Below, piece by piece: positions 295-18,275 of a stretch of DNA of 32,331 bases. Within the stretch, counting starts at the first letter, position 1. Every line of letters begins with the position of its first letter. Source of the stretch: a virus (Duplodnaviria > Heunggongvirae > Uroviricota > Caudoviricetes); the IMG/VR virus record IMGVR_UViG_3300025936_000018. One strand, 5' to 3'. The notes below the pieces were generated by a model. The model did no database searches. It was not told the DNA's origin and saw nothing but the letters and a program-made list of their open reading frames with translations. The translations under genes and the position numbers were made by a program.

Positions 295-2130
295 CTATTC
301 GCTTCCGGCGTAGCTGATCGGGCAGGTGACCTCCGCCGGCAGCGACACCGTGCCGCTGTCGCAGACCCACGACTCGACGGCGAGCGACTCGACGCCGACG
401 AATGCGACGCTCTCGAACGTCTCACCGAAGAGCTGGAAGTTGTTCTGAGCGTTGAGCACGGAGTCGCGGACGATTCCGAGCTCGAGCATCCCCGCGTCGA
501 GGTAGAGGAAAGACCCCTCCGGGAAGAGGTACCACGTCACCGTCTCCGGGAACGGCAGGAGATCGCCGTCGCCCTGAGTGCCGAAGACCTGGTTGCGGCC
601 GTTCGCGCCGTCGATGTAGAAGGTCGGCTCGATGTTGAACGAGCGCAGGAGCGCCGTGACCTTCGCCTGATCGGTGTCGAACCGCTGGAACTGCGTGCGG
701 ATGACGTCCGAGACGATGAGGTCGACCGCCCACCACGGGATCATCAGCCGCAGGACGGCCTCCGGATCCATGCGGTTGCGGTTCCGCAGACCGTTCGCCG
801 CGGCGAGGATCTGCGAGAAGAGCGTCGCCGACGCCCCGAGGCCGAACGAGCCCGCCGTGACCTGGCTCGACGCGGCGTCGATCAGGGTGAGCAGGTTCGA
901 CTCGGCAAGCCGCGCGTGCGCGGCCAGCACGAGGTTGTTCCACTGCGCGACGAGCTCCGGGAAGGCGCGAGCGCCGAGGTTCCCGAACTCGAGGCAGTGG
1001 TAGATGATGTCGACGTCCGTCTCCTCGAACGGCGGGCACGGGATCGTCTGACACGACTTCGCCGCGGACGTCCCGCCTGCGGCGTCCTCGGCCTCGGTGA
1101 TGAGCCCGATGCCGTCCGTGACGGCGCCGAGCGATGCCGGCCGCGCGTAGCGGAGACCGCCGCGATCCGCCGAGAACGACGGCAGCGATCCCATCACGGG
1201 CCGCACCGGGACCGAGATGTACGCGAGGTTGTAGTACGGCGTCACCGGAGCACAGAGACCACCGGACGCGGTCATCGTGAGCTCCTCGCCGGACGCGGTC
1301 AGGCCGAGGCTCCGGTCCTGCTGCGCGATGCGGTCGCGCATGGCGCGCTTGATCGCCGACGGCTTGACCACTTCGCGGATCAGTGACCAGTTGCCCTCGA
1401 TGTCGGCCTGCCCGAGACGCCGCTCGGCCGGGTACTCGTCGTTCCAGTCGGCGACCGCGACGATGTACTTCTCGGTCGGCGTCCCCCGAGCCGCCGAGCG
1501 GTCGAGCGAGACGAGCGTCTCGTGGCGCCGAATGAGCGCCTGCGCGAGCTGGAGCTCGCTGCCGAACTCGACGCCGGGGGCGACGTTCGTCGCGCCGCCG
1601 CCGGCCACGAAGCCGACCGCGCGCGGAGCCTGGAGCTCCGCCTCGAGGAGCGAATGGCCTGCCGACGGGCGCGGAAGCGACCGCCGACCGCCGACCGGCG
1701 CACCCGCGGCCGTCAGCTGGTCGTCGGCACCGTCGCCGTCGCCATCTCCGTCGCCATCACCGGCTCCGTCCTCGGCGCCATCGCCGGCGTCGGCGTCGCC
1801 GCCGTCACCGCCATCCGCGCCGTCTCCGCCGCCGTCACCGGCATCCGCGGAGGTCTCGAAGTCGGCGAGCGCCGCGAACGCGGCCTCGTCCTCGGGCGTG
1901 AGCAAGCGCTGCGCCTGCAACGCCTTGAGCTCGCGGAGCGTCTCGAGCGCGCCGCGCGTCGCCTCGATCAGCTCGGCGGCGGACATCCCGGACTCGGCGA
2001 CGAACCTTGCCGGCTCGGCGAGCACGGCGTCCGTCTGCTCCGTGTAGTCGGCGATGAGACCGGCAAGCGCCTCGTCGTCGATGCTCGCGAGGTCCTCTGG
2101 CACCTCTGCGAAAATCTCGTTCTCGTCCAC
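295..2130 (-). CDS. Major capsid protein with long N-terminal scaffold-like region
   Basis: GTG start with AAGGAGGG SD; helical acidic N-terminus, G/D/A low-complexity linker, then MTASGGLCAPVTPYY which resembles the start of the mature shell domain of actinophage capsid proteins; downstream of protease. Confidence 0.85.
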   Translation of the reverse strand: MDENEIFAEVPEDLASIDDEALAGLIADYTEQTDAVLAEPARFVAESGMSAAELIEATRGALETLRELKALQAQRLLTPEDEAAFAALADFETSADAGDGGGDGADGGDGGDADAGDGAEDGAGDGDGDGDGDGADDQLTAAGAPVGGRRSLPRPSAGHSLLEAELQAPRAVGFVAGGGATNVAPGVEFGSELQLAQALIRRHETLVSLDRSAARGTPTEKYIVAVADWNDEYPAERRLGQADIEGNWSLIREVVKPSAIKRAMRDRIAQQDRSLGLTASGEELTMTASGGLCAPVTPYYNLAYISVPVRPVMGSLPSFSADRGGLRYARPASLGAVTDGIGLITEAEDAAGGTSAAKSCQTIPCPPFEETDVDIIYHCLEFGNLGARAFPELVAQWNNLVLAAHARLAESNLLTLIDAASSQVTAGSFGLGASATLFSQILAAANGLRNRNRMDPEAVLRLMIPWWAVDLIVSDVIRTQFQRFDTDQAKVTALLRSFNIEPTFYIDGANGRNQVFGTQGDGDLLPFPETVTWYLFPEGSFLYLDAGMLELGIVRDSVLNAQNNFQLFGETFESVAFVGVESLAVESWVCDSGTVSLPAEVTCPISYAGSE

Positions 2131-2238
2131 GGCTGGTAGCCCTCCTTCGCAAAACGCTGGATTGGGGATTCAGCGCTCGGCGGCTATGCCGGCCGTGCTG
2201 GCGTGAGGGCCGCTATGCGGATCTCTCGCTCGGACGGG

Positions 2239-2251
2239 ATTCTAAGACGGG
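2239..2251 (-). promoter_or_regulatory. Putative late promoter (CCCGTCT-TAGAAT) upstream of capsid gene
   Basis: Same motif at 8391, 18488, 28393 and 29813, all minus strand and between or at the ends of genes. Confidence 0.7.
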
Positions 2252-2283
2252 GCCTCTGAGCGATCTCCGCCGCCGGCCAAAGC

Positions 2284-2291
2284 GATATATT
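2284..2291 (+). promoter_or_regulatory. -10 box TATATT (GATATATT) for a leaderless transcript
   Basis: TATATT 2286-2291 lies 6 nt before ATG 2298, no SD; same GATATATT core at 8449 and 10358. Confidence 0.55.
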
Positions 2292-2297
2292 CGTACG

Positions 2298-3729: not shown

Positions 3730-4366
3730 AACTCGCGTTGCAGTCGCAGTCGCGGTCGACGTAGACGAACGCGCGCCGGCCGGGATCTTGGCCGTGCCGC
3801 TGCCGGCGGCTCATGATCGACGGTACGACGTCGTCATGGTCAACGAGGGAAGGCACGGTCGCGAGCGGGTCGATGCCGCGAGATCGGAGGAAGCGTCCCG
3901 CGATCTCGTCGTCGGCGACGAACCGCGGCGGGTAGTTCTGCGCATCGACCCACGCAACGAACTCTCGAGCTATCCACGCCGGCCATCCGACCGCGACTGC
4001 CGGCAGCCAGTGCGCGTACTCGAGCTCGGCCCACGACGAGCCGCGCTCGCACGCCTTCTGGACGGCGAGACGGTGCCGCGGCGGGTTGCCGGTCACGCAG
4101 AACACGATGACGCGGTCGGGGCGCGCGTCGATCGCTGCTTGAGCTGCGGCGACGAAGCCGTCGCAGAGCGTCGCGTCATCCTGGATGACGATTAGGTGCG
4201 AAGCCTCAGCCGGAGCGGTCCGGATGCACTCGCGATAGGTGCGCCACGGGCTCTTGACAGGGTCGTCCGGCGCCGGGTCGAAGCAGACGCGCCCGTTCGT
4301 CTTGAGCGCGAGATCCTCGGCGAGATGGGCCCGCCGAGGGTGGCTCTGAATGACGACGTCTAGGAC
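3704..4366 (-). CDS. GT-A fold glycosyltransferase; no canonical start codon for the full domain
   Basis: Frame open upstream of track ORF 3704..4105: LDVVIQSHPRR...SPWRTYREC...HLIVIQDDATLCDGF...ADDEIAGRF...TVPSLVDH; in-frame TGA shortly upstream with no ATG/GTG/TTG in between; GGAG 8 nt before GTC at 4366. Confidence 0.75.
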   Translation of the reverse strand, partial: VLDVVIQSHPRRAHLAEDLALKTNGRVCFDPAPDDPVKSPWRTYRECIRTAPAEASHLIVIQDDATLCDGFVAAAQAAIDARPDRVIVFCVTGNPPRHRLAVQKACERGSSWAELEYAHWLPAVAVGWPAWIAREFVAWVDAQNYPPRFVADDEIAGRFLRSRGIDPLATVPSLVDHDDVVPSIMSRRQRHGQDPGRRAFVYVDRDCDCNASSIDWTGEA

Positions 4367-5598
4367 GGTTCGATCTCCAGCGGTTGCAATGCGAGCTCAA
4401 CCAGTTCGGCGACCTCGCGATCGCGGACAGGCTCGGAGTCGTCGTCGTCCGAGAGAGCCGCTGCCGCGCCGCTCGAGCGCGCGTAGAGCTCGGCGAGCGT
4501 TCCGCCATCATCGGTGGATTCGCCGAGCCACTCGGACGCCTCCGCAGCGTTCATCGGCCCGAATACGGTGGGACCGATCGCGCCGTCCGCGGCGCGCGAG
4601 ACGCAGCGGCCGGGGCGGATCGCCGCCGGCGCGAGATCGCCGAGCTCGTCGTTCGTGGTGATGAGCGCGAGCACGCGAAGTCCCTGACCGATCATGCCGT
4701 CGACGACGTTGAGCAGCCGCGAGAGTCCCTGCCCGTACTTCTCCTTCGCGTTGGCGGCGAGCAGCTCGCCAGTGTCCTCGAGAATCAGGATGCGCCACTT
4801 GTCGCCGGCCTCCGCGACGACGTCGCCGGACGGCTCGTGAATCACGTCGTAGCTGTCGGAGAGCAGCACGTCGATCATGTACGACGGGCGATCGACGAAG
4901 AACACGTCCGGGTCGGTGATGTAGTGGAACTCCGCCCACGAAGCCCACTCGGACGCGAGCGCACGCAGCGCCCACGTCTTGCCGCAGCCGGGCGGCCCCT
5001 GCCAGAGAAGCAGCTGGCCGTCGCGGCCGGGCTCCGTCCACGCCATGAGCGCCTCGAGCTCGGCGCGGACGTCGCCCGGGTAGTTGCGTGAGATGGCCTC
5101 CCAGCCGGCCGCTTCGATTCGGCGCAGCCTCGAGGTCGCTCCGAACTGGCCACACGTCCAGAACGTGATCGGCACGCGGCTGTCTTCGCCGGTCATGAAC
5201 GACGGCGGTAGCGCCGTGCGGAACGCTGAGAGCGTCGGCGCGATGTCCGAGTGGTTGAGCGCCGCGATGTGCACGTGGGCCCAGCCGCCGCGAAGCATGA
5301 CGAGCGCGAGCGATCCGTCCTCGGTCCGGAAGACCGCGGCGCTGCCGTCGCGGAACATCGCGTTCGTGACGTCGAGCGCCATAGCCTCGGTCGGCCACTG
5401 ATCGCTCATGAAGTTCGCGACCCCGGCACCGAGAGCCTCCGCGTAGAAGTACCGCTCGGCCGGCGACAGGCGCGCCATGTCGAGCACCGGCAACGTGCCG
5501 ACCGGGGCGACGCCGGATGCCGTGAGCGTGTCGCGCAGATGGCGGCGCCGCTCAGCGATCGAGGGCAGCGCGCGCCGGACCGTGACCGGCCGGTTCAT
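4360..5598 (-). CDS. AAA+ ATPase resembling actinobacterial DUF5925-associated ATPases
   Basis: Walker A GPPGCGKT, Walker B ILILED, SRLLNVVDG, ITTN, arginine finger RPGRC; ATG abuts protease stop. Confidence 0.85.
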   Translation of the reverse strand: MNRPVTVRRALPSIAERRRHLRDTLTASGVAPVGTLPVLDMARLSPAERYFYAEALGAGVANFMSDQWPTEAMALDVTNAMFRDGSAAVFRTEDGSLALVMLRGGWAHVHIAALNHSDIAPTLSAFRTALPPSFMTGEDSRVPITFWTCGQFGATSRLRRIEAAGWEAISRNYPGDVRAELEALMAWTEPGRDGQLLLWQGPPGCGKTWALRALASEWASWAEFHYITDPDVFFVDRPSYMIDVLLSDSYDVIHEPSGDVVAEAGDKWRILILEDTGELLAANAKEKYGQGLSRLLNVVDGMIGQGLRVLALITTNDELGDLAPAAIRPGRCVSRAADGAIGPTVFGPMNAAEASEWLGESTDDGGTLAELYARSSGAAAALSDDDDSEPVRDREVAELVELALQPLEIEPS

Positions 5599-8346
5599 CT
5601 AGCTCGCCTGCGCGAGCTCGCGGAGCTCGGAGAACCGCTCGAGCTCGTCCTCGGAGAGCTCCGCCTCGAACACCGGGATCCCCGCGGCGACGAGCGCGAG
5701 CACCTGATCGCCGTCCGCTCCGCACGCAGCGAGCGCCTGCTGGCGCGGAACCGGGAAGCCGGGCACGTTGACCGCGAGCAGCGCTACGAGCTCACCGTCG
5801 CGCCAGTCGCCCGACAGCTTCGACCCGCGCAGGAGCCGCACCTTGTCGGCCGGCGCGTCCGGCTGGAGAGCTCCGGCGACCCAGATGCCGTGCTCGTCCT
5901 CGCCGCAGCGCACATGCGCGACGACGGTGCCGGTGTGGTCGTAGTGGCTCGTCGCAGCCGACCGGCCGAGCCGAAGGTCGGCGTGCGGCGCGTCGAGCGT
6001 GATCTGGCCGCACGCGATCCTCGAGCCGTCCTCGACGACGATCTCGCCGAGGTGGAAGTACGCGTAGTCGGTCTTGGAGTGCGGCGCCGTGCGGCACACG
6101 GACGGGAAGCCGATGTGGCAGACGCCCCACGCGGCGGCGTGTCCGCTGATCCGACCGTCGTCATCGACGGTGATCGCGGTCGGCTCGGCGAAGTTCGGGT
6201 TCTCGAACCACTCCGCCGGCGGGCGCTCCGGCACGAGGCCGGCCGCCGCGGCGGTGAGAGCGTCTCCCGACGACGACTCCGAGACCGACGCGTACTGGCG
6301 AAGGTGCTCGACGCACTCCTCGTATGTGCCGGTGAAGCGCACATCCTCGGCGTTGAGGTAGTTCGCGACCCGCCAATTCTCGCCGTCATCGGAGAGGATG
6401 TTCGGAACGAACTCGCTCTGCTCGGACTCGACCGCAGCTGCGACGACCGTCTCGGTGCACTGCGTGCACTCTTCGACCGTCCATCCGCCCTGCTGCGTGA
6501 CCGTCCAGAACGCGGGGTTCGCGCCGGCGACGAGCGAGTCGCCGACCGCGATCTTCGCGACGCCGAACGCCGGGAACGGGCAGACCGTGGTCATGCCGAT
6601 CTCGGCGCTGAGCACGACGGCGATCGTGTCCTCGTTGTAGACGTCGAGAATCGACTGGCCGACAGCGGAGCCGCCGTTGGCTGGCTGCCACTTCCCGTCG
6701 TTGTCGAGCTCGCCGATCCAGTTGCCGTCCTCGTCGAACCAGTCCGACCGGGGGCCGGTGATGTAGTCGCCGATGGCGAGGTCGACCGAGTTGCCGCGGA
6801 GCGTCTCGTCGCCGACGAGCCGGCTGATCTCCGAGCCGTACTCGCCGGTGTCGAACACGCCCTTGCCGCGGATGAGTCCCGCGGCATCGTCGCGCCAGAT
6901 GTCGTCGACGCGGCCGGCGACCTGAGCTCCGACGTGGCCGCCCTCGCTCGTCTCGATCATGGCCATGAGCGTGAGCGGCAGCTCGCGCCACGTGATCGAG
7001 CCGGGCGCGAACGCGCGCCCGTCGGAGGTCAGCTTGCCCTCCGGAGCGAGGATCGCGCTCCATGCCGTCGGTCCCTCGGGCGCTGCGGTCGATGCCGCCG
7101 GCGCGGCCGGCGTGCGCGGCGAAGGATTGCGCGCCGGCATCCTCGAGCCCGGCTGGTGCGCCTCGGGCAGCGTCGCCTCGACCTCGTCGGCGACCGCTGC
7201 GAACACGAGCCGACCGATGCCGGCAAGCTGAGCGATTCCGGTGCGCATAGCGGCGTCGCCGTCCGGCGTCTCGGGCGCGACCTCGATCATGCCCTTCTCG
7301 ACCGGCACCCACTCGGACGGGTCGGAGACGATCGGCTCGTTGTCGTCGCCGACCGTGATCGGCGCGACGTAGTAGTCGCCGTCGCCGCAGCCGATGAGCA
7401 CCTTGTCGAGCCGGATCGCCGCGTCGACGACGTGCGGCATGTAGCCGTATTCGTCTCCGTCTCCCCGCGGCAAGTCCATCTCCGCGAGCGCGTCGTTCAC
7501 GTCGCAGATCAGGTCGCGGAAGCCGTCCTCCGGCGCCCACGCGACGTCGCCGACCGCGGCCGTGATCGTCTCGGGCGCGGCGAGCTCGTCCAGCCAGAGC
7601 GCAGCTGCCATCTCGAGCAGCGACTCGTCGGCGTCGGGCCCAAGCTGCGCGTACGCGAGCGCGTGCGCAGCGGCGCGCTTCTGGACGTCGACCAGCTCGA
7701 CCGGGTTGAAGTCGCCGCCCATGCCGGCGTAGACCTCGGTGCCGTCCTCGCCGTTGGCGTAGAAGATGTCGAGTCCGTGCTCGAGCGCGAACGCGATCGA
7801 CGCCTCGGCCACGGCTTCCCACGGCGCCTTGAGCGAGTCGTAGCCGTACTTCTTCGCGGCCTTCGCGTAGTAGTCGGCGACCTTCGTCTTGATCTCGGCG
7901 ATGTCGGAATCGGCCACGTCCTTGACGCCGCCGCGCGCGCCGGAGAGCGCGCCGGCGACCGCGGTGATCCCGCCCCAGTTCGCCTGGAGCTTGCCGTCGA
8001 CCGGCTCGGCGAAGCCGAGGCCGTAGTCGTCGAAGTTCTCGCCGTCGCCGCGCTCGAGGAAGAACGCCTTCGCGTACTGCGCGTTCGGCTTCTCGGTGGC
8101 GCCGGACCACTCGCGCACCGCCTTCTCCGCTGCGGTGGCGTCCCACTTCGCGTCGCGATCGCCGAGCGTCAGCGTCGTCGATCCGGAGACGGCGAGCTCG
8201 CCGCCCGCGCGCGCCTCGCGGCGCTGCTCGAGCACGGCTACGAGGTCCGCGCTCTGCTGCGTCCGCTTGACGGGGCGGCTTCCGTGAGCGCCCGACCGGA
8301 GCGCCGACCGGCGGCGCCTCGCACCTCTTCCACGATGAGTGGCCAT
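5599..8346 (-). CDS. Capsid maturation (prohead) protease, multidomain
   Basis: GGAGGAGG SD; core APEGKLTSDGR...GGHVGAQVAGRVD...RGNSVDL (His and Ser candidates); C-terminal GHAAAWGVCH...HYDHTG...LSGDWR...AVNVPGFP block as in actinophage proteases; between MuF and capsid. Confidence 0.82.
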   Translation of the reverse strand: MATHRGRGARRRRSALRSGAHGSRPVKRTQQSADLVAVLEQRREARAGGELAVSGSTTLTLGDRDAKWDATAAEKAVREWSGATEKPNAQYAKAFFLERGDGENFDDYGLGFAEPVDGKLQANWGGITAVAGALSGARGGVKDVADSDIAEIKTKVADYYAKAAKKYGYDSLKAPWEAVAEASIAFALEHGLDIFYANGEDGTEVYAGMGGDFNPVELVDVQKRAAAHALAYAQLGPDADESLLEMAAALWLDELAAPETITAAVGDVAWAPEDGFRDLICDVNDALAEMDLPRGDGDEYGYMPHVVDAAIRLDKVLIGCGDGDYYVAPITVGDDNEPIVSDPSEWVPVEKGMIEVAPETPDGDAAMRTGIAQLAGIGRLVFAAVADEVEATLPEAHQPGSRMPARNPSPRTPAAPAASTAAPEGPTAWSAILAPEGKLTSDGRAFAPGSITWRELPLTLMAMIETSEGGHVGAQVAGRVDDIWRDDAAGLIRGKGVFDTGEYGSEISRLVGDETLRGNSVDLAIGDYITGPRSDWFDEDGNWIGELDNDGKWQPANGGSAVGQSILDVYNEDTIAVVLSAEIGMTTVCPFPAFGVAKIAVGDSLVAGANPAFWTVTQQGGWTVEECTQCTETVVAAAVESEQSEFVPNILSDDGENWRVANYLNAEDVRFTGTYEECVEHLRQYASVSESSSGDALTAAAAGLVPERPPAEWFENPNFAEPTAITVDDDGRISGHAAAWGVCHIGFPSVCRTAPHSKTDYAYFHLGEIVVEDGSRIACGQITLDAPHADLRLGRSAATSHYDHTGTVVAHVRCGEDEHGIWVAGALQPDAPADKVRLLRGSKLSGDWRDGELVALLAVNVPGFPVPRQQALAACGADGDQVLALVAAGIPVFEAELSEDELERFSELRELAQAS

Positions 8347-9824: not shown

Positions 9825-10345
9825 GCGTCATCGAACAAGCTAGACGCGACTGGACGAACGTCGGCGCCGAGGTTGTCGAGCGGATCGGCGGCCGCGACGC
9901 GGCGAGCAGCGAAGCCGAAAGCCTCGAGTGGCAGAGCGTTCCGATCGGCCGGCCGCTGACGGTCGGCTTCATGCCCGGCGAGGCGATCAAGGCTGCGATC
10001 AGCGAGCTCGCCATCCCGAAGGTGAGCGCGATCGCGATCGGATCGCTTGAGCGGCCCGGCGCGACCGGCGACGACGACGGCTGGTACCCCGGCTTCTACG
10101 GCATCGAGGGGAACTATCGCAACTGCGTCGTCCGCGTCTACATCATCGACGGCGGCGAGTCGCTGATCCCGATCTTCGCCGACGTCTGGGAGATCGACGA
10201 GACCGACGATCCGGCGCTGACAGCTCTGCGGCAAGCCGGAGCTCGAGCTCGCGCGCGCGGCGAGGAGCCGATCGTGGACATGCCAACCGCGGCCGAAGCG
10301 AACGCGCGCGTGGCGGAGCTCGGCCGGCGCAAGGCGTATCGGTAA
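9821..10345 (+). CDS. Hypothetical protein
   Basis: ATGA overlap at 9821, MSVIEQARRDW..., high GC3; C-terminal part of track ORF 9593..10345. Confidence 0.7.
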   Translation: MSVIEQARRDWTNVGAEVVERIGGRDAASSEAESLEWQSVPIGRPLTVGFMPGEAIKAAISELAIPKVSAIAIGSLERPGATGDDDGWYPGFYGIEGNYRNCVVRVYIIDGGESLIPIFADVWEIDETDDPALTALRQAGARARARGEEPIVDMPTAAEANARVAELGRRKAYR

Positions 10346-10356
10346 GCCGCACGTCC

Positions 10357-10371
10357 TGATATATTTATACC
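10357..10371 (+). promoter_or_regulatory. Second TGATATATTTATA extended -10 / operator candidate
   Basis: 13-bp identity to 8448-8460; followed by GAAGGGAGA SD as at 8476. Confidence 0.75.
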
Positions 10372-10397
10372 GTCATCACTAGCGGAAGGGAGACCGC

Positions 10398-11087
10398 ATG
10401 ACACGCAGAGAGAGGCTCGAGCGTAGAGCCGAGAAGAGGCGCGACTGGGCAGGAAGTGCCAGCGCGCGATCAGACGCCGCGTACGAAGCGGAGCACGCGA
10501 TCGGCGATCGCATTCCGATGGGCCAGCCGATTCTCGTCGGCCATCACTCGGAGCGGAGAGCTCGCCGCGACGTCGAGCGGATGCAGACGCTCGCGAGCCG
10601 GAGCATCGAAGAGGGCGCGAAGGCCGAGCGCCACGCAGCGGCCGCGGACAGCATCGAGCGGCAACTCGAGGTCGCGATCTTCGATGACGACGAGGACGCG
10701 GTCGAGCAGCTGCGCGCGAAGGCCGACCGGCTCGAGGCGCAGCGCGACGAGCGGAAGCGTGCGAACGCCGAGTACCGGAAGGAGCACAAGGCCGAGCTCG
10801 CCGCGATGACGCCCTACGAGCGGTCGCAGGCAGTTCCGTATCCGACCTACTCGCTCACGAACCTCGGAGCTCGAATCCGAGACGCGCGGCAGCGCGCCGA
10901 CCGGCTCGAGCGCGAGAAGGCGATGGTCGCCGCAGGCGATCGCGGCCACGGCCGGCAGATGGAGTCCCGGTACCCGGGCACCTGCGCCGACTGCGGCGGA
11001 GAGATCAGCCGCGGCGAGCAGATCGTCTGGTTCCGTCTCACGCGCGAAGCGACGCACGCGACTTGCCCGGCAAAGGACGAGTCGTGA
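10398..11087 (+). CDS. DUF3560-like protein with C-terminal Cys/His zinc ribbon
   Basis: RRERLERRAEKRRDWA...IPMGQPILVGHHSERRARRD signature; YPGTCADCGGEI...HATC. Confidence 0.82.
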   Translation: MTRRERLERRAEKRRDWAGSASARSDAAYEAEHAIGDRIPMGQPILVGHHSERRARRDVERMQTLASRSIEEGAKAERHAAAADSIERQLEVAIFDDDEDAVEQLRAKADRLEAQRDERKRANAEYRKEHKAELAAMTPYERSQAVPYPTYSLTNLGARIRDARQRADRLEREKAMVAAGDRGHGRQMESRYPGTCADCGGEISRGEQIVWFRLTREATHATCPAKDES

Positions 11088-11578
11088 CGGCCGCGGAGTA
11101 CTTCTGGATCGAGTACGAGAACGACGACATGGGCCCGTTCGTGGAGCGCGAGCTCGCGGAGATGGCGCTCGGCTCGGACGAGGGCCAGATATTCACGAGC
11201 GGCGACGGCGGTTGCACGCCGATCGTTGCGCTCGTGAGCCCCGCGTGGCAGTCGACGGCCGTCGAGTGGCGCGGAGTCGGTCTCGGCGAGCAGCGCGATC
11301 TCACGCGGCGATCTCTTGCTCGAGCGATCGCCGGACCCAATTCGGTCACCGTCAACTGCGTGCACGGCCAGCATGACGAGTGCCACGGATACGTCGCGCC
11401 GCTCGTCTACAGCGCCACGCGGCCGTGCGGATGCGTCTGCCACGACGCCGGCGGCCGCGACTTCCATGCCGGGCTCGAGCGGGCCCGGAGGTCGTACTAC
11501 AGCGAGCGCGAGCCGGCGGAGATCGGCGGCGCTTTCGACGGCTTCACCGTCACATCCGACGCGGATCCGGGGCTCTAG
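11084..11578 (+). CDS. Hypothetical phage protein
   Basis: GTGA overlap; Cys/His cluster (CVHGQHDECHG, CGCVCH); ends GGAFDGFTVTSDADPGL. Confidence 0.7.
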   Translation: MTAAEYFWIEYENDDMGPFVERELAEMALGSDEGQIFTSGDGGCTPIVALVSPAWQSTAVEWRGVGLGEQRDLTRRSLARAIAGPNSVTVNCVHGQHDECHGYVAPLVYSATRPCGCVCHDAGGRDFHAGLERARRSYYSEREPAEIGGAFDGFTVTSDADPGL

Positions 11579-11784
11579 TGGCCGCCGGCGTGCGATGCAC
11601 GGCATCCGGCGCGGAGCGCTCCGTCACGTCCGAGCAGTGGATCTCCGCCAAAGGTGCGTGCCCGGATTGCGGAGCAGAGGTCGAGTTCATGGTCCGAGCC
11701 AACGACCTCTCGCCGCGCTGCAAGGTGAAGGTCCACCGGGCGCCCGCGGGCGTCATCCCGCGCCCGTACGGAGCAGCGCCATGA
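11578..11784 (+). CDS. Small Cys-containing hypothetical protein
   Basis: TAGTG overlap at 11578; KGACPDCGAEV; stop overlaps next ATG. Confidence 0.55.
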   Translation: MAAGVRCTASGAERSVTSEQWISAKGACPDCGAEVEFMVRANDLSPRCKVKVHRAPAGVIPRPYGAAP

Positions 11785-12074
11785 TCGAGGAGCTCGAGAT
11801 GACCACGGCGCTAGGCTTCGCAGCGATGGAGACCGCGCAGTGGAACTACTTCACCGTGACGAACGAGGACGGCTCGCCGCGGCTGGTCGTGCGTCGGAAC
11901 GGGCCCGACATTCAGCTGCTCACGGCGAACGGCTGGGTCGATCGGCCGCAACTCCTGACGCGGTTCCAGGATGCCGGCTTCCTCGAGCAGACCGATCTCG
12001 CCGGCGCGCAGCGCTCGGCGACGTCGATCGGCGGCGGCCTCCAGTGGCCGCGCGAGGACCTCGCAGTTGGCTGA
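11781..12074 (+). CDS. Small protein, candidate immunity protein 1
   Basis: ATGA overlap; WNYFTVTNEDGSPRLVVRR...NGWVDRPQLL; immunity role is inference from position. Confidence 0.65.
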   Translation: MIEELEMTTALGFAAMETAQWNYFTVTNEDGSPRLVVRRNGPDIQLLTANGWVDRPQLLTRFQDAGFLEQTDLAGAQRSATSIGGGLQWPREDLAVG

Positions 12075-12321
12075 GCTCAAGATCATCGGACAGCAGGGGC
12101 CGACGCGGTTCCTCGTAGACGCGGGGAAGGTCGCGGACGGCGAGCCGAATGCTGGTCTGCCGGCGGCGCGGGTCTACGACGTCGTGACTGACTTCCTCGG
12201 CGAGCCGACGGCGATCGGCGCGATCACCGCGCACTCGCCCGGCTGGGACGAGCCGACAGCGCCGGACGAGCTGCTTGAGACTGTCCGTGAGCGCGTCGCC
12301 GCGCTGCTGCCGGCGGCCTAG
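12067..12321 (+). CDS. Small protein, candidate immunity protein 2
   Basis: TTG 12067 with GAGGA SD; MAELKIIGQQGPTRFLVDAG...HSPGWDEP; stop overlaps MuF stop in CTAG. Confidence 0.65.
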   Translation: MAELKIIGQQGPTRFLVDAGKVADGEPNAGLPAARVYDVVTDFLGEPTAIGAITAHSPGWDEPTAPDELLETVRERVAALLPAA

Positions 12322-15300
12322 TCGTTCTGGCTGTTGCCGCCGCCGAGCTCTCGGTACGTGTCGACCATGTGCCAGCGGATCTCGAGCTCGTCGAGCAACT
12401 CGCGGAGGTGCGTGCCCTCCATCATCGTCTGCTCGGAACGGGCGAGCCATTCGTCCGCCTGTTCTTGAGCTCGCGCGACGGCGTCCTCAGCCGCCGCGAG
12501 TGCGCTCGTGTTCGACGTGCCCTTGACGGCCTCGCGTAGCGCGTCGAGCTCTCGCTGCTTCTCGGCGAGGTTGTCGCGCATGATGTTCGCCATCGCGGTC
12601 GCGCCCTGGATGCGCTCCTGCTCGCGCTCGGCGGAGAAGATGACCTGGTCGATGTCGCTGAGCGCGACGCCGCCGTGGATCTGCGCCTCGGCGTATGAGC
12701 CGTACGTCATGTCCGCGACGTCGCCGTTCGCTTCGACGGGGTTCGCGCCGCCCCACCACGAAGTCAGGCTCGGATCGTTCAGCGGCGAGGGGATGATCTC
12801 TCCGTCTCGGCCCGGTCCGAGCGAGTCGATGAGCGAGAACGTCGTCCGTTCGTTCGTCTCCGGCTTGAGGTTGACGATCAGGTCGCCGTACTGCTCGACG
12901 CCGTGTGTCTCGTCGGCGGAGCCGGCGAGGTACCCGTAGATCGGCCTCTCTTCGTCCGGCAGGCTCTTCGGGTAGCCGAACATTCGCTCTTCGGCTCGAG
13001 CTCGCAGATCGGCGTCGAGCATTCCCTTCGACGTGCCGGTCTCGAACTGACTCTTGAAACGGCCTTCCTTGAGGATCTTCTCGAGCGTGTCGGTGGTGAC
13101 GCGGATGCGCACCTGCGCGTCGGCCACGGCCTTCTTGATCGACGTGAGAGCTTCGGCCTTCCACTCCTCAAGCCGTTGCGCTCGCTCCTCGGGCGTACCG
13201 ATCATCTTCCATCTGCCGCCCTGCGTCTGCGCTTGCCGCTCGGCGACGTAGTTGATGTTCTCCATCGTGCGGTCCATCGTGAGATTGTTCGCACCCGGGA
13301 CGATGTCCTGCACCCTCAGGACGCGCATGACGTCGGCGCCAACCGGAGCATCATGCGTCACGCGCTGGCCGATGCCGAACGCGCCAGCCGGGACAGGATT
13401 CTTCGACTGCTCGGCCGCCATCTCGTTCCACAGCCGAAGCCGCTCCGCCGGGTCGGTCGACAGCTGGAACGCGCGATACTGCGGGTGCAGCGACGTCTTG
13501 AGCTCGAACGTCCGCGGCGTGTGGAACTGGAGCTCGAACCGCTGCCCGTTCTTCTCGAATACGCCGTTGATCCCCTGGTAGTCGGCGTTGCCCCAATAGT
13601 TCTTCAGCTTGATCTGCGTGTAGCCGTCCTTCTCGAGCCGCGCGAGCGTCGTCTGGACGCCGTTCGCGTAGCTGCCGTCAGGGAACGTCATCGTGTAGCG
13701 GAGCGTGTCGTTGATCGACGCCGAGACCTCCGCGACGGTCGCGCTCGGATCAGCCAGCCGAGCGTCGGCGAGGTCGCCGGTGATCTTGCGGACGAGCGAG
13801 GGGTTCTCCTTGACGGCGTTCTCGAGGCCTTCCATCTTTCCGCCGGCCGTGTCCGCGATGCCAGAGAGCTCGGCGGTGACTTCCGGCTCGGCCGCAGCCG
13901 CGTCGCTGATCATCGCCTTCGCGGAATCGAGGACCTCCGGCGGGATCGGCTCGCCAGCGACCGACGCCGCGTACGCCTTCGCTTCGTCCCAGTCAGTGAA
14001 CAGACGCACCTCGGTCTCGGCCGGCGCGTTCTGCGCCATGAACACGATGTCGGGCCGGCCGTACTCCTCGAACTTCCAACCTTCCGGCGCGTACTCGTCG
14101 ACGAACTTCATCCGGCCGACAACCCGGAATCCCTCCTGCTCGTACATGTCCGGCAGGAAGCCGTCGTACGCGTCGAGCGTCGCCGCGCCTTCCTCCTGCA
14201 CCGCCTTGCGGACGGCCTGCTGGCCGGCGCCCTTGATGCCGCCCGGATTGCGGAATACGTTCTGGAGGTCGTGCTCCGGCGTGACGACGAAGCCGGACTC
14301 GCCGTCAGGCGAGATGAAGACCTTGTCCCGGGCTAGCTCTTCTGGGGTGTGGACGGTGAGGAAGCCGGGGCGGGCGTTTTCTGCGAGTGCGGAGTTGAAC
14401 GACTCGTAGTCGGTCGTTTCGGCGAAGGAAACGACGGGTCGTCCGGGTCCCGATCCGGCGGAAGGTGCCGAGAGAGGCCTGATGCCGGCTTCTGCATGAC
14501 CAGATGTTAGCCCACCGGCGTCGGTGAGCTCCTCGCAGTTGACCGGCAGGATCTCCTCTGCGGCCGGCGGCGTCCAGCCGGCCGGATTGGCCGGATCATC
14601 GGCCGCGGTCAGATGGTTCGTCGCGAGCTGCTCGAAGCGGAGCGCGGCGATGTCGCCGGCGCGCTCGAGGATCGGCTGCAAGATCGCGGCAAGCCTCGGC
14701 TCGAAGTCGTCGATGCGCTTGTGGGCGGCACGCAGAACGCGGTTGTGATGCTCGAGCGAGAAGCGCTGCTCGCCGGCCGCGTCGATGTTGTCGCCGGCGG
14801 TGTCGCTCTTCCGCTCGCCCGAGTACTCGAGCGTGCACCGGCAGTTGATCACCTCGCCGGCCTCGCCGTCCGGGTCGCCGGGGAAGCGGAGCTCGGCGCC
14901 GCCGACGTCGAACAGCCCGTCGAGTTGAACGGTCTGGCCGTCCAAGCCTTCGTAGTCCTCGTGGCGCGGATACGTGGCGCCGGGCGCGGTCATCCACGTC
15001 TTCGTCGCCGTCGCGCCGGCAACATCGGCCGCGATCTTGGCCGCGGCGAGCGAGCCGCCGTTCACAGCGCCGGCGAGCTCGGTTCGCGCGATCATCGTCG
15101 CGCGCACGTTGCTCGCCTCAGCCATGTGCGCCCGGATCGCCTTCGCCGTATCGGGAACCGACAACCCCTGCTCGTGCGCGTAGTTGATCACGTTCATGAC
15201 GTCGTCCTGCGTCGTGCGCGAGATGCCGACGATGTGCTGGCCTGCTCTCGAGATGACGTCCGCCGCGAGCGGATTCGTGATGTCCCAGGTGAGCCCGGCC

Positions 15301-16229
15301 TGCTCGAGCGCCGGCGTCATGACCGCCTTCACGAACGCCTGCCGGATCGGGTCGGTCTTGCCGCGCAGCTCCGCGGGGAGACAGAACGGTTCGGCGGCGG
15401 CGACGAGCGCGGCCGCGGTGATCGGCAGCGCTCCGGTGAACGGGATCGCGATGATCTCGGTGTCGCCGCGGACGACGAGGAGCTCGTCGAAGTGGAGCGC
15501 GTTGCCGACAGCCGACTCGGGGTAGCCATCGGCCGGCTCGCCGTCGACGTCGGTGACGGTGAGATGCGCCTCGAAGCCGTGGTCGTGCGAGTAGTCGATC
15601 TCTGCCGCGATGAGCGCTTCGCAGACGTCGGTGCGGAGCTCCACGAGCCCGCGCACGTCGGGCAGCAGAATGCCGACGCCGGGCGGGTCGAACGCGCCGT
15701 AGCCGCCGATTACGCCCTCGAGCGGCGCGTGGGTGGCTGCCACGATGCGCAGCGCGTCCACGATCGGCTCGAGCTCGCCCTCGATCTCGCCGAGATACGC
15801 GAGCGTGACGTGGAGGTTCTCCGGAGGGTCGCCGCCGGGCGCCGCGATCGCTTCAGCTTCGAGCGGCCGCGGCTTGACCGCGATCATCGTCGAGAGCGAC
15901 GTGACGCCGGGCGCCGCAGAGACGAGCGGCGGCGTCACCTCGGCGAGGTCGCTCCACTGCCACTGCTCCGGAAGCACGCCCGGAAGTCCTTCGGCCCACT
16001 CGTCGCAGACCATCGCCGGGGAGACCAGCGTGTCGAACATGCCGCAGCGCATCGCCGTGCCGGCGCCGTAGAACGAGCACGTCGCGCACGCGCGGTCGTG
16101 GTTGGCCGTCTCCCGGTAGTGCACGAGCGGCGGCAGTTCGCCCTCGCCGTCGGCGATCGTGGCAGCAGCGGCTCCCACAGGCTCGCGCAGGCCATCCCAC
16201 GCGGCCCAGACCAACTCGCGGTCGCTCAT
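12318..16229 (-). CDS. MuF-family minor head protein fused to several enzymatic/toxin-like domains
   Basis: MuF motifs RATMIARTE, TKTWMT, DGQTV, FPGDP, EVINCRC; 2H motifs LHVTL/AHLTV; RelA-like ELQFHT; YAEAQIHG; directly downstream of portal. Confidence 0.88.
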   Translation of the reverse strand: MSDRELVWAAWDGLREPVGAAAATIADGEGELPPLVHYRETANHDRACATCSFYGAGTAMRCGMFDTLVSPAMVCDEWAEGLPGVLPEQWQWSDLAEVTPPLVSAAPGVTSLSTMIAVKPRPLEAEAIAAPGGDPPENLHVTLAYLGEIEGELEPIVDALRIVAATHAPLEGVIGGYGAFDPPGVGILLPDVRGLVELRTDVCEALIAAEIDYSHDHGFEAHLTVTDVDGEPADGYPESAVGNALHFDELLVVRGDTEIIAIPFTGALPITAAALVAAAEPFCLPAELRGKTDPIRQAFVKAVMTPALEQAGLTWDITNPLAADVISRAGQHIVGISRTTQDDVMNVINYAHEQGLSVPDTAKAIRAHMAEASNVRATMIARTELAGAVNGGSLAAAKIAADVAGATATKTWMTAPGATYPRHEDYEGLDGQTVQLDGLFDVGGAELRFPGDPDGEAGEVINCRCTLEYSGERKSDTAGDNIDAAGEQRFSLEHHNRVLRAAHKRIDDFEPRLAAILQPILERAGDIAALRFEQLATNHLTAADDPANPAGWTPPAAEEILPVNCEELTDAGGLTSGHAEAGIRPLSAPSAGSGPGRPVVSFAETTDYESFNSALAENARPGFLTVHTPEELARDKVFISPDGESGFVVTPEHDLQNVFRNPGGIKGAGQQAVRKAVQEEGAATLDAYDGFLPDMYEQEGFRVVGRMKFVDEYAPEGWKFEEYGRPDIVFMAQNAPAETEVRLFTDWDEAKAYAASVAGEPIPPEVLDSAKAMISDAAAAEPEVTAELSGIADTAGGKMEGLENAVKENPSLVRKITGDLADARLADPSATVAEVSASINDTLRYTMTFPDGSYANGVQTTLARLEKDGYTQIKLKNYWGNADYQGINGVFEKNGQRFELQFHTPRTFELKTSLHPQYRAFQLSTDPAERLRLWNEMAAEQSKNPVPAGAFGIGQRVTHDAPVGADVMRVLRVQDIVPGANNLTMDRTMENINYVAERQAQTQGGRWKMIGTPEERAQRLEEWKAEALTSIKKAVADAQVRIRVTTDTLEKILKEGRFKSQFETGTSKGMLDADLRARAEERMFGYPKSLPDEERPIYGYLAGSADETHGVEQYGDLIVNLKPETNERTTFSLIDSLGPGRDGEIIPSPLNDPSLTSWWGGANPVEANGDVADMTYGSYAEAQIHGGVALSDIDQVIFSAEREQERIQGATAMANIMRDNLAEKQRELDALREAVKGTSNTSALAAAEDAVARAQEQADEWLARSEQTMMEGTHLRELLDELEIRWHMVDTYRELGGGNSQND

Positions 16230-16232
16230 GGG

Positions 16233-18275
16233 TTAGCGCCCGTTCTTCGCTGCCGCGAGGAGCCCCTCCACCTTGGCGGCGAATGTCGGCGGCAGCGGGT
16301 CGGGCCGCTCGTCATAGAGCGTGCGTGCGGCGTGGCGCTCGATCGTGTCCGCGATGGACTCGGCCGCGGTGTCGTCGCGCACGCCGAGCTCGCGGAGCAC
16401 GGCCAGCATGATCTCGTGCGTCGCGGAGACGAGCTCGAGCTCGCGCGCGCCGCCGAGCAGCCGCCGGACGGTCGTGCGTCCGAGTTTCGCCGCGACAAGG
16501 CCGTTCGGATTGCCGTCGATCAGCGCGAGCGCTTCATCGTCGCGTCGTGCGAGCTGCCGAAGGCGCGCGCCGGCGGCTTCGCGCGCGCGCAGCTGCGCAT
16601 AGACGGCCGCGCCTTCGATCGTGGTGCCGAGAGATCCGACGATCGTTTCGGTGCCCGCCTCCTGGCCTCCGGCCGGCGGTCCCGTTTGGGCCTCCGCTCC
16701 GGTCTCGGGCCCGCCGGCCGGCTGCTCGTTCCCGCTGTTCGAGACGACACCCGGAGTGGGCTCGACCGAGCCGGCGCCGACTCGCGGCACGCCGTCCCAC
16801 GCGAGAGACGAATCGCCCGTCGCGATGCCGACGATCCGTGCCCTCTCGTCCTTGGTCGGCGCGTCGTCCTCGCTGAAAGCTGTCTCGCGGCGAAGCGCCT
16901 CGTCGCCGATGACCGCCTTGTCGTGCAGCTGGATCGCGGTCTTCGTTCGGTCGGGATGGTTGATCACCTTCGTCGCGTCGTACGCGATCACGTACTTGTC
17001 CCAGTCGGCCATGTTGAGCTCTTCGCGCAGGTACGGCCCGAGATAGGCGGCCGTCAGGTCCTCCACGAATCCGTCGGCGACCGGCTGGATGTGCGCCTGC
17101 CACGTCTGGTCGTCGATGATCCAGGCGTTCCAGTGGTTCGTGTCGGTGAAGCCGAGCAGCGCCTCGACCGGCATATCGAGCGAGATCGCGAGCCGGCGAA
17201 TCGCCTCGTTGCGCAGGCCGACCTCCGGGTAAATCTGGAGCGGGTCCTGGATCTGCATGTGGTAGACGAGATCGGCGAGCTTCATCCCGTCCGGGACGCG
17301 CACGCGCAGAAGGATCGGCGCCACCGCGGCGGCGGTGCCCTCGTCGGCGATCGCCGTCGTGATCGCCTCGGTCATGTCCTCCATGAGCGGGTCCTCGAGG
17401 ATGTCCTCGTCCGGAGACGGCTCGTCGGGTCGCGTCGTGATGCGGTCGTCGATGAAGAGGAAGCCGGCCGTCCAGAGTCTCGAGCGGAGCCGCGCGCGGA
17501 TCACCTGCGTCAGAAGGACGAGCTCCTCGAGGATGTCGAGCACGCCCTCGGTCGTGGAGTCCGGCAGTGCCGAGAAGCGCGGGTGCGGCCGATGGAGCCG
17601 GTACGCGACGGCGGTGCCGACGCCGGCGGGCCCCTGGTTGTTCCCTTCCTTGTCGACGACCGGCTCGAATGAGTCGTCCGGCGCCGGGCGGAAGAGCGTC
17701 GCCGGCATCACCGGCGCCGTGAACCGCGTGTAGTTGCCGTCGAGCAGCCGGATCTCGTCGGTCGAGAGCATCTCCCACTGCTCCTGATTCGTCTCGGGGT
17801 TGATCGAGACGAAGAGGATGGCCTCGCCGACGAGGAACGCGAGCAAGCCGTAGGCGCGCTGGAGCCCGGTGCGGCCGATGCCGCCCGGATCCTTGATCCG
17901 CTCGAACGCCTCGATCACCTGCTCGTTCGTCGTCGGAATGAGGTCGCCGTTCTCGTCCTTTTCCGCGGCGAAGAGCAAGAGCTGCGAGAGCGCTCGAGCG
18001 TAGAACTGCGCTGCGAACTTGAACTCGCCGACGAGGTCGAAGTAGCCGAACGCCCGGATCTGCCACGGCATGATCAGGCGGCGCAGATAGGTCGCCTGTC
18101 CGTGGCGGACGAGCGCGCCGGCCGCGGTCATGTTCTCGCGATAGGACTCCGGCAAGTCCTTCTCGACGAGAGCGAGCTCGGCCTTCAGCGCGTCATGTGT
18201 CGGGCCGACGCGATGCGACATCACCACGCGAGCGCGCGGCACGGGCGAACGACGGCGGCGGCGGAAGAGGCCCAA
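16233..18275 (-). CDS. Portal protein
   Basis: WQIRAFGYFDLVGEFKFAAQFYARALS, RLHRPHPR...DS, IRRLAISLDMPVEALLG...NHWNAW resemble actinophage portals; position upstream of MuF/protease/capsid. Confidence 0.82.
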   Translation of the reverse strand: MGLFRRRRRSPVPRARVVMSHRVGPTHDALKAELALVEKDLPESYRENMTAAGALVRHGQATYLRRLIMPWQIRAFGYFDLVGEFKFAAQFYARALSQLLLFAAEKDENGDLIPTTNEQVIEAFERIKDPGGIGRTGLQRAYGLLAFLVGEAILFVSINPETNQEQWEMLSTDEIRLLDGNYTRFTAPVMPATLFRPAPDDSFEPVVDKEGNNQGPAGVGTAVAYRLHRPHPRFSALPDSTTEGVLDILEELVLLTQVIRARLRSRLWTAGFLFIDDRITTRPDEPSPDEDILEDPLMEDMTEAITTAIADEGTAAAVAPILLRVRVPDGMKLADLVYHMQIQDPLQIYPEVGLRNEAIRRLAISLDMPVEALLGFTDTNHWNAWIIDDQTWQAHIQPVADGFVEDLTAAYLGPYLREELNMADWDKYVIAYDATKVINHPDRTKTAIQLHDKAVIGDEALRRETAFSEDDAPTKDERARIVGIATGDSSLAWDGVPRVGAGSVEPTPGVVSNSGNEQPAGGPETGAEAQTGPPAGGQEAGTETIVGSLGTTIEGAAVYAQLRAREAAGARLRQLARRDDEALALIDGNPNGLVAAKLGRTTVRRLLGGARELELVSATHEIMLAVLRELGVRDDTAAESIADTIERHAARTLYDERPDPLPPTFAAKVEGLLAAAKNGR

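Follow-up and report, generated by a model that had tools for sequence, protein, structure and literature searches.

The head proteins encoded in the window, a 32,331-nucleotide stretch of viral DNA (IMG/VR record IMGVR_UViG_3300025936_000018), share a short alanine-centred motif that is quite probably the signal at which the phage's own prohead (capsid-maturation) serine protease recognises and cuts them. The window corresponds to the reverse strand of a single 96,219-bp contig of approximately 69% GC, and the phage is an uncultured, siphovirus-like actinophage of 96 kb. Genes were called with a codon-bias model, which yielded 136; five of these constitute the head set and the other 131 served as the background for comparison. 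The head genes are on the minus strand in the order portal, MuF, protease, AAA and capsid, which places the protease gene between those for the portal and the capsid:

16233-18275, minus strand: portal protein, 680 residues (PHROG 776 portal, E = 2.4e-85)
12318-16229, minus strand: MuF polyprotein, 1303 residues (Pfam and PHROG matches)
5599-8346, minus strand: protease polyprotein, 915 residues (PHROG 859, E = 1e-83; PHROG 18402, E = 1e-47)
4360-5598, minus strand: DUF5925 and AAA ATPase protein, 412 residues (Pfam AAA, E = 8e-9; DUF5925, E = 2e-8)
295-2130, minus strand: major capsid protein precursor, 611 residues (PHROG 777 major head protein, E = 1.6e-66)

Enrichment of the motif in head proteins

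The original prediction, made from the nucleotide sequence, was that a word of the form [LIM][TV]A[AS] recurs at the domain boundaries of all head proteins as a protease cleavage code, and every coordinate quoted for it translates on the minus strand to the word given. This strict motif has 14 matches in the 3,868 residues of the five head proteins, compared to 1.8 ± 1.4 in composition-preserving shuffles, and 21 matches in the 24,133 residues encoded by the other genes; it is 4.2-fold denser in head proteins (binomial p = 1.2e-4), as the original prediction expected of a cleavage code. Because the strict motif had been picked after the sequence was seen, it was controlled against 7,972 random degenerate motifs matched to it in shape and approximately in expected count; none reached 14 matches, the maximum was 10, and the two best-scoring motifs both overlapped L-T-A-A. 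Exact words of three or four letters were not individually significant after multiple testing (TASG, 3 versus 0.14 expected; LTAA, 4 versus 0.39), so the signal appears only with the degenerate motif and its conservation.

A position-specific scoring matrix (PSSM) was built from homologues, without the query sequences, at the seven sites of the capsid, protease, portal and AAA proteins, and a score of at least 9 bits was counted as a hit. In the notation used here, P1 is the residue before the assumed scissile bond (↓). The matrix has Ala or Ser at P4, Leu (frequency 0.71) with Val and Ile at P3, Val or Thr at P2, Ala (0.96) at P1, Ala or Ser at P1′ and Ala or Gly at P2′; the consensus differs only in that Met and Phe are also admitted at P3. 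Over the whole genome there are 20 hits, compared to 7.3 ± 2.8 in shuffles, and 12 of the 20, among them the six best-scoring, belong to the five head proteins, which make up 14% of the proteome; the other 131 proteins have eight, about the chance level.

The motif is shared by several head proteins and is rare elsewhere, in cultured relatives as well. The nearest of these, phages of Arthrobacter, Gordonia and Microbacterium and cluster B mycobacteriophages, have capsid proteins with merely 25-41% sequence identity to that of the present phage; the capsid family has 861 cultured records, and closer relatives are numerous in metagenomes. Microbacterium phage Hyperion has PSSM hits only in its portal protein (residue 15), capsid-morphogenesis protein and capsid protein, and none in 15 other proteins. 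Arthrobacter phage Atuin has eight hits in gp74, the protease gp75 and the capsid protein gp76; its other proteins (approximately 7,000 residues) have one, in the 2,254-residue tape measure, and none is found in a 2,811-residue helicase fragment. In Gordonia phage Mareelih, three proteins have the motif at the N-terminus (the portal protein, gp77 and an ADP-ribosyltransferase); gp81 contains it as well, gp83 has it around its protease domain, and in the capsid protein it precedes GGYCAP, with one further hit in the tape-measure protein. Mycobacterium phage Orion has the motif at the same places in its portal protein, MuF-protease fusion and capsid protein.

Conserved sites in the five head proteins

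Positional conservation was assessed in an alignment of 116 capsid homologues and in 80 viral contigs around protease homologues, which provided 72 protease, 46 portal, 8 AAA and 19 MuF relatives; a later MuF sample consisted of 105 related polyproteins with shuffled cargo domains. Eleven sites, named here by their P1 residues, are kept in 8 to 116 homologues: capsid 141, 176 and 288; protease 607, 699 and 887; portal 51; AAA 27; and MuF 104, 272 and 542. Conservation drops sharply in the columns that flank the motif, and most of the sites are within variable or disordered linkers. Five of the six sites covered by two AlphaFold2 models fall in low-confidence, probably disordered segments: the predicted local distance difference test score (pLDDT) is below 50-63 in the segments of capsid 141, 279 and 288 and protease 699 and 887. 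The proposed placement at domain boundaries of all head proteins stands for eleven conserved sites across five proteins and not for five other motif words, which are unconserved. Likewise, the statement that most instances are at linkers or domain junctions applies to the conserved subset, in which low pLDDT or breakpoints of MuF homology mark the junctions.

The capsid protein is of the HK97 type with a long helical N-terminal scaffold-like region (residues 1-288), as judged from the PHROG 777 match and the AlphaFold2 model; a PDB sequence search with the capsid profile found no solved relative. In the model, helices at residues 19-94 are followed by a disordered segment (96-167), a helical domain (192-274), a second disordered segment (284-304) and the shell fold, a mixed alpha/beta domain with a long helix (391-420). 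Four motif sites are located in the first 288 residues:

1702-1719, minus strand: capsid site 1, Q-L-T-A↓A-G, P1 Ala141, in a disordered acidic linker after the N-terminal coiled coil
1597-1614, minus strand: capsid site 2, G-F-V-A↓G-G, P1 Ala176, Ala in 116 of 116 homologues
1288-1305, minus strand: capsid site 3a, G-L-T-A↓S-G, P1 Ala279, PSSM score 11.2 bits
1261-1278, minus strand: capsid site 3, T-M-T-A↓S-G, P1 Ala288, directly before the invariant N-arm GGLCAPVTPYY

At site 1, Ala is present in 113 of 116 homologues and residues 139-143 follow the pattern [VIL][VT]A[AS][AG] within a gap-rich linker (pLDDT about 35), with a class match of 0.94-0.98 from P3 to P2′ and a top-residue frequency of only 0.26 in the upstream flank. 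Site 2 was missed by the original prediction, the list of which is therefore incomplete; residues 174-178 are [LF][TV]A[ASG][AG], with Leu in 85 and Phe in 11 homologues at P3, Thr in 50 and Val in 42 at P2, and Ala in 67, Ser in 28 and Gly in 14 at P1′. Site 3 has columns from P3 onward of Leu 101/Ile 11/Met 3, Val 66/Thr 32, Ala 116, Ser 99/Ala 16, Gly 116 and Gly 114 among the 116 homologues; its upstream flank is almost unalignable (0.07) and its downstream flank has a conservation of 0.87. Homology to the capsid proteins of cluster B mycobacteriophages begins at residues 285-286. From this alignment, Ala288 is predicted to be the boundary between the scaffold region and the mature capsid protein. 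The word LTASG at 1288-1302, which had been listed as a site in its own right, is there, but as a phage-specific insertion that duplicates the conserved site: the columns of site 3a are gaps in 107-111 of the 116 homologues, and site 3a is a copy of the conserved site nine residues downstream. This local insertion (capsid 270-290, nucleotides 1261-1320) gives the doubled maturation site G-L-T-A-S-G-E-E-L-T-M-T-A-S-G-G, of which most homologues have a single copy. Three short capsid homologues (P0042, P0090 and P0113) were considered as natural mature-only genes that might pin down the scissile bond and were rejected, as they begin within the middle domain and have the appearance of truncated gene calls.

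The protease polyprotein carries a conserved site on each side of its protease domain and a third further upstream:

6520-6537, minus strand: protease site 607, S-L-V-A↓G-A, P1 Ala607, PSSM score 11.3 bits
6244-6261, minus strand: site at the N-terminal edge of the protease domain, A-L-T-A↓A-A, P1 Ala699, in a variable linker (pLDDT 43-63)
5680-5697, minus strand: site at the C-terminal edge of the protease domain, A-L-V-A↓A-G, P1 Ala887 (pLDDT 39-47)
5686-6249, minus strand: predicted released protease domain, residues 700-887 (188 residues, 19.8 kDa)

Among the 72 relatives, the columns of site 699 from P3 to P2′ are Leu 48/Ile 9/Val 7, Val 31/Thr 19, Ala 65, Ser 31/Ala 28 and Ala 46/Gly 9, with an upstream conservation of 0.20; those of site 887, which has the top PSSM score of the genome (13.6 bits), are Leu 66, Val 52/Ile 8/Thr 6, Ala 65, Ala 51/Ser 11 and Gly 59. 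The presence of the motif on both flanks of the protease domain fits self-release. The segment that contains site 607 is present in about 50 of the 72 relatives and the site is conserved where the segment exists (Leu 24/Val 7/Ile 7, Val 14/Thr 12, Ala 36, Ala 27/Ser 20/Gly 8, Ala 22/Gly 17).

The domain between sites 699 and 887 matches PHROG 18402, head maturation protease, over residues 694-890 (E = 1.4e-47), and its AlphaFold2 model (residues 688-915, made with 44 homologues) has a pLDDT of 81.7, rising above 90 over the core. When the model was compared to 48,161 chains with VIA-align, the top three matches were T4 gp21 (Z = 7.5, root-mean-square deviation 3.0, 116 residues aligned) and the proteases of varicella-zoster virus (Z = 7.4) and human cytomegalovirus (Z = 5.3), followed by unrelated folds with Z scores of 4.1 or lower. 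The top rows of a Foldseek search of the PDB were almost all herpesvirus proteases, with weak E-values of 0.08 or worse, and a search of BFVD returned actinophage capsid maturation proteases (E = 1e-26) and COG3740/HK97-family proteases (E about 1e-3). On the basis of the model, the domain has the prohead-protease or assemblin fold of MEROPS clan SH (families S21, S77, S78 and S80). Residues invariant in the 44 sequences include the candidate catalytic residues His736, His744, His788, His801 and Ser845 (within L-S-G-D-W-R), and also Asp847.

The portal protein and the AAA protein each have one conserved site, near the N-terminus:

18117-18134, minus strand: portal N-terminal site, N-M-T-A↓A-G, P1 Ala51, at a fixed distance of approximately 27 residues upstream of a conserved WQ motif
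5512-5529, minus strand: AAA site, T-L-T-A↓S-G, P1 Ala27, conserved in 8 of 8 homologues

The portal site (46 relatives) has Leu 30/Ile 6/Val 3, Thr 19/Val 19, Ala 37, Ser 21/Ala 17 and Ala 27/Gly 14 in an N-terminus that is otherwise variable, and Orion gp8, Hyperion gp21 and Mareelih gp76 each have a site at the same position. The AAA module, a separate protein here, is fused into MuF or protease polyproteins in three relatives (P0199, P0200 and P0204), and two of these fused forms have a site at the position aligned to Ala27 (P1 1194 in P0199 and P1 1239 in P0204).

The MuF protein consists of a Cys-rich N-terminal piece, a 2H phosphoesterase, the MuF domain and a C-terminal cargo of DUF3626 and other domains. 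It matches PHROG 2468, head morphogenesis (E = 3e-36), and Pfam Phage_Mu_F (E = 3.2e-6, 28.3 bits, just under the cut-off of 29.6); it is a head-associated MuF polyvalent protein with fused enzymatic cargo, adjoining the portal gene. Its sites are at the junctions of these parts:

15912-15929, minus strand: MuF site before the 2H domain, P-L-V-S-A-A, register uncertain (P1 Ser104 or Ala105)
15393-15425, minus strand: tandem MuF sites after the 2H domain, P-I-T-A↓A-A (P1 272) and A-L-V-A↓A-A (P1 277)
14598-14615, minus strand: MuF site between the MuF module and the cargo, H-L-T-A↓A-D, P1 Ala542

The 105 related polyproteins, none of which was used in training the PSSM, contain 286 sites of at least 9 bits, compared to 30.9 ± 6.3 in shuffles. 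Their cargo sets (zeta toxin, ADP-ribosyltransferase, DUF3626, kinases, PHP, GNAT and AAA) differ so widely that all-against-all BLAST exposes the breakpoints of module shuffling, and the neighbourhood of motif sites (within 10 residues) is 3.5-fold enriched in them (Wilcoxon p = 9e-19). The breakpoint peaks of the query protein (99-104, 272-289 and 543-545) match the sites at approximately 104, 272/277 and 542. Because the module order is permuted and a global alignment was unreliable, the columns were obtained by local BLAST mapping: site 104 aligns in homologues to L-T-A-A-A, approximately eight residues ahead of STM(I/V)A, a motif of the 2H domain, site 272 (60 relatives) has Leu 35/Val 11/Ile 5, Thr 47, Ala 52, Ala 39/Ser 11 and Ala 28/Gly 17, site 277 is just partly conserved, and site 542 (27 relatives) has Leu 16, Thr 15, Ala 25 and Ala 15/Ser 4. 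The suggestion that the MuF polyprotein is clipped into separate modules is supported at the three junctions and not within the cargo. As the original prediction had cautioned, no motif separates the C-terminal blocks: there is no site in residues 543-1303, so the cargo is predicted to stay in one piece of approximately 83 kDa.

Proposed processing, alternatives and related systems

We infer from these observations that the bonds are cut, and that the assemblin-fold protease is the enzyme that cuts them. The protease would enter the procapsid as the C-terminal part of the 915-residue polyprotein and, with the shell complete, would free itself by cuts at Ala699 and Ala887 and also cut at 607. 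The 288-residue scaffold-like region of the capsid protein would be cut at 141, 176 and 288, and at the extra copy 279, into fragments with predicted masses of 14, 3.5 and 12 kDa, leaving a shell protein that starts with Ser-Gly-Gly-Leu-Cys (predicted residues 289-611, 323 residues, 34.6 kDa). The portal protein would lose approximately 51 N-terminal residues and the AAA protein a basic N-terminal peptide of 27 residues. Cuts at approximately 104, 272/277 and 542 would divide the MuF polyprotein into four parts with predicted masses of 11, 17, 28 and 83 kDa: the small Cys-rich N-terminus, the 2H phosphoesterase as a free enzyme, the MuF module and the undivided cargo. The scissile bond is probably between Ala and the following Ala or Ser, by analogy with herpesvirus assemblin sites. 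That the protease matures the scaffold, the portal protein and itself, as the original prediction had it, is consistent with the placement of the sites and with the fold, and the two computational checks named there as possible refutations, enrichment over background and positional conservation, both came out in favour of this proposal.

Several findings weigh against cleavage at these sites by this domain. The strict word is in two-fold excess in the non-head proteins as well (21 matches versus 10 in shuffles); therefore, part of the signal is a general sequence preference. Motif-like words are partly conserved inside folded domains (capsid at approximately 424 and 442, protease at approximately 853, MuF 162 and 396), and therefore the word alone is insufficient. 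Capsid site 176 is modelled as a short strand with high pLDDT, not as a linker, and a rule of one module, one cut fails in the MuF cargo, where residues 543-1303 have no site of 5.2 bits or more except a weak one at 1245. The structural matches of the protease domain are moderate, with Z scores below 8, and a Pfam search up to an E-value of 1 returned no peptidase family for it, Peptidase_S78 included. The scissile bond is assigned by analogy alone, and no cleavage product is on record for this phage or, in the searchable literature, for any relative. A complex prediction of the protease domain with capsid residues 268-308 (score 0.01) counts neither for nor against.

The same motif might instead serve, uncut, as a conserved docking or targeting peptide, for example a strand through which proteins attach to the protease, the scaffold region or the inside of the capsid and so are drawn into the procapsid. 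The restriction to head proteins, the strand modelled at capsid site 176 and the location near the N-termini of the portal protein, the AAA protein and several head-module proteins of Mareelih, as in the capsid-targeting peptides of T4, are compatible with such a role; nevertheless it is unlikely, because there are several copies within one scaffold region, because copies bracket the protease domain and also mark junctions within shuffled polyproteins, which is the pattern of processing sites rather than that of a single address tag, because the capsid site is exactly at the boundary of scaffold and N-arm, where HK97-type capsids are cut, and because small central residues are typical of a scissile bond. 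Targeting and cleavage are also compatible with each other, as the targeting peptides of T4 are removed at the protease motif. If the bonds are cut, a protease of the actinobacterial host or another phage enzyme could be responsible in place of the assemblin-fold domain. The capsid and scaffold proteins of staphylococcal phage 80alpha are trimmed by a host protease, and nothing ties the present motif biochemically to any one catalytic domain, the complex prediction having given no verdict. This explanation is very improbable, given that the motif co-occurs with the protease family across hosts of four genera, flanks the protease domain on both sides in 65 of 72 homologues and occurs at about chance frequency in the phage's non-head proteins. 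Two specific versions of it were considered and rejected: the motif has Leu at P3 and no Cys at +1, unlike sites of signal peptidase I (small residue at -3) or of lipoprotein signal peptidase (lipobox), and it differs from that of the L27-type host protease of 80alpha and co-varies with the phage protease family.

Finally, the words might be a by-product of Ala-rich, high-GC composition and of helix and linker preferences, with no specific function. The 69% GC content, the 14% alanine of the head proteins, the over-representation of the strict word in non-head proteins, the five unconserved instances and the similar words inside folded domains all point this way. Yet composition predicts 1.8 matches, not 14, and no random motif of the same shape comes close; nor does it account for invariant Ala and Leu in otherwise unalignable linkers across 46-116 homologues, for the 9-fold excess in an independent protein family (MuF), or for tape-measure, helicase and tail proteins of the same phages that are nearly free of the motif. 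Compositional chance is strongly disfavoured, and is the least probable of these explanations.

The proposed cleavage by the prohead protease can be compared with known systems. Herpesvirus assemblin (S21) cuts at release (R) and maturation (M) sites, and its general consensus is (V/L/I)-x-A↓S. The present protease is like assemblin in its fold, in the probable P1 Ala with Leu, Val or Ile two residues before and Ser or Ala after, and in having a site at the C-terminal end of the protease domain (887), like the release (R) site, with further sites in the scaffold. It differs in that P2 is Val or Thr and P2′ is Gly or Ala, whereas P2 of herpesvirus sites is polar (Asn, Gln or Lys); in the C-terminal location of the protease in its polyprotein, which is N-terminal in herpesviruses; in the fusion of the scaffold to the capsid protein; and in the many more substrates that bear the site (the portal protein, the ATPase and the MuF effector polyprotein). 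The Ser-His-His triad can be named here as candidate residues only. Pseudorabies virus assemblin sites, YLQA-T and VQA-S, are cut after Ala (PMC4498786).

The original comparison was with T4 gp21 (S77) and phiKZ gp175, and it is apt in principle: in T4, as in giant phages with S80 enzymes (phiKZ gp175, SPN3US gp245), one motif is found in the capsid protein, the portal protein, the protease and packaged internal or ejection proteins, and T4 gp21 shares the fold. The specificity (a small residue, probably Ala, at P1) is closer to that of herpesvirus assemblin. The cleavage code of T4 gp21 is (L/I)-x-E and that of phiKZ gp175 and SPN3US gp245 is A-x-E; the T4 and giant-phage enzymes cut after Glu, whereas the central invariant residue here is Ala, the sequences are unrelated at the family level, and the present phage is siphovirus-like with a genome of 96 kb. 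For SPN3US gp245, an A-x-E motif is common to many head proteins, and N-terminal propeptides, in which several motifs are found, are removed (PMC10052503).

HK97, with its gp4 protease (S78/COG3740) and delta domain, is similar in that an N-terminal scaffold-like region fused to the capsid protein is removed at the start of the N-arm (predicted here), in the gene order, and in the COG3740/HK97-family matches in BFVD. In contrast to HK97, the protease has no Pfam S78 match and is part of a 915-residue polyprotein, and the region to be removed, 288 residues instead of about 103, is nearly three times as long and contains a second folded domain. A 2022 preprint, a structural survey of actinophage capsids, called the cleavage site of long delta domains unpredictable (bioRxiv 10.1101/2022.09.09.507160). 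The MuF polyprotein resembles the polyvalent MuF proteins of Iyer et al. 2017, multi-enzyme proteins built on the MuF head-association domain, some with a C-terminal assemblin-like peptidase, for which processing into units was proposed (PMC5512222); that work left the cut positions undefined, whereas here a conserved motif is present at the junctions and is shared with the capsid and portal proteins.

To our knowledge, few model systems have a known prohead-protease cleavage code: T4, the giant phages phiKZ and SPN3US, and herpesviruses. No published description of the motif was found in the searched literature, and for this capsid and protease family the searchable literature gave neither a cleavage motif nor a mature N-terminus, nor any Edman or proteomic data; N-terminal sequencing in cluster J concerns an unrelated capsid family (PMC3706429), and mass-spectrometry tables for Rosebush give protein-level coverage only (PMC7150772). 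On balance, the evidence leans towards a herpesvirus-like specificity, hydrophobic-x-Ala↓Ser/Ala, as the conserved code of a large lineage of actinobacteriophage prohead proteases, with the N-terminal motif peptides as removable capsid-targeting tags. The proposed lineage comprises cluster B mycobacteriophages and many phages of Gordonia, Microbacterium, Arthrobacter and Streptomyces.

If this is correct, sequence alone would predict the mature N-termini of capsid and portal proteins and which proteins are packaged in the head, and the mature ends of capsid protein, portal protein and protease would follow for hundreds of phages in culture, some of them related to those used against mycobacteria. 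The cuts that split MuF polyvalent effectors into free enzymes injected with the DNA, proposed but never located (PMC5512222), would also be placed. Short N-terminal peptides that end in the motif, such as those of the AAA protein here and of the Mareelih ADP-ribosyltransferase and others, would be removable capsid-targeting tags by which packaged, probably injected enzymes could be recognised. T4 provides the precedent, with N-terminal capsid-targeting peptides that are removed at the protease motif. The likeness of the motif to assemblin sites links the maturation proteases of phages and herpesviruses in substrate specificity besides fold. The predictions can be tested in easily grown phages of Mycobacterium smegmatis, Gordonia terrae and Microbacterium foliorum.

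Unconserved words and other features of the head module

About a third of the instances listed in the original prediction are unconserved and probably due to chance, and some strict matches in the portal protein had not been listed. The positions concerned are the following:

7552-7569, minus strand: ITAAV, protease residues 261-265, class match 0.04-0.36, probably not a site
6433-6450, minus strand: VVAAA, protease residues 634-638, class match 0.03-0.11, not conserved
14772-14789, minus strand: weak candidate site N-I-D-A↓A-G, MuF residues 481-486, acidic P2, below the PSSM threshold
17043-17060, minus strand: LTAA, portal residues 407-410, inside the folded portal, P1 Ala in 9% of homologues

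The first two had been put forward as protease sites (the second around residue 636) and are withdrawn. IDAAG (MuF 482-486) is retained as weakly conserved, with partial matches in 21 homologues, and IVAA (MuF 162) is not conserved as a motif site. Portal LTAA 407 and LVAA 593, the strict matches that had not been listed, are both unconserved.

Alternative start codons affect two of the head proteins. The portal protein has 680 residues if translated from the TTG at 18275 and 664 if translated from 18227, and a start at 8235 would shorten the protease polyprotein to 878 residues.

Three Mareelih proteins, gp77, gp79 and gp81, which include the 1,017-residue ADP-ribosyltransferase, have the motif 20-85 residues from the N-terminus, and their N-terminal peptides look like removable capsid-targeting peptides on packaged effectors. 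In Orion, a stretch of the MuF-protease fusion gp9 at approximately residue 398 (G-R-V-A-A-G-G-W-T-A-P-S-E-Q-D-Y) is nearly identical to the predicted mature N-terminus of the capsid protein gp12 at approximately residue 256 (S-L-I-A-A-G-G-W-C-A-P-S-E-Q-L-Y); a capsid-like N-arm may stand at the start of the fusion's middle domain.

The N-terminal piece of the MuF protein (residues 1-104, nucleotides 15918-16229) has no family match; its Cys-x-x-Cys … Cys … Cys pattern is suggestive of a small zinc-binding domain. A helical segment ending in H-L-T-A-(A/S) follows the MuF domain in this phage (14598-14720) and precedes the 2H phosphoesterase in several relatives; permutation of the MuF modules between phages was seen in homologues from six of the related contigs.

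Outside the protease domain, no Pfam family was found for the protease polyprotein, and a PDB sequence search returned nothing beyond a weak match of residues 290-350 (nucleotides 7297-7479) to inorganic pyrophosphatase (PDB 2prd, E = 0.003 over 61 residues), for which Pfam gave nothing. This segment may be a packaged pyrophosphatase-like domain.

The head module is split between the protease and MuF genes by six small genes on the plus strand (8490-12321), one with a primase-like PHROG match and none that looks structural. At the other end of the protease gene (5596-5601), its TAG stop codon is followed at once and in frame by the ATG of the AAA gene (…AGC TAG ATG AAC…). Three relatives likewise have an in-frame TAG with zero gap, others overlap the two genes in another frame, and in P0199 and P0204 protease and AAA form a single fused protein; stop-codon read-through and recent gene fission are both possible at this junction.

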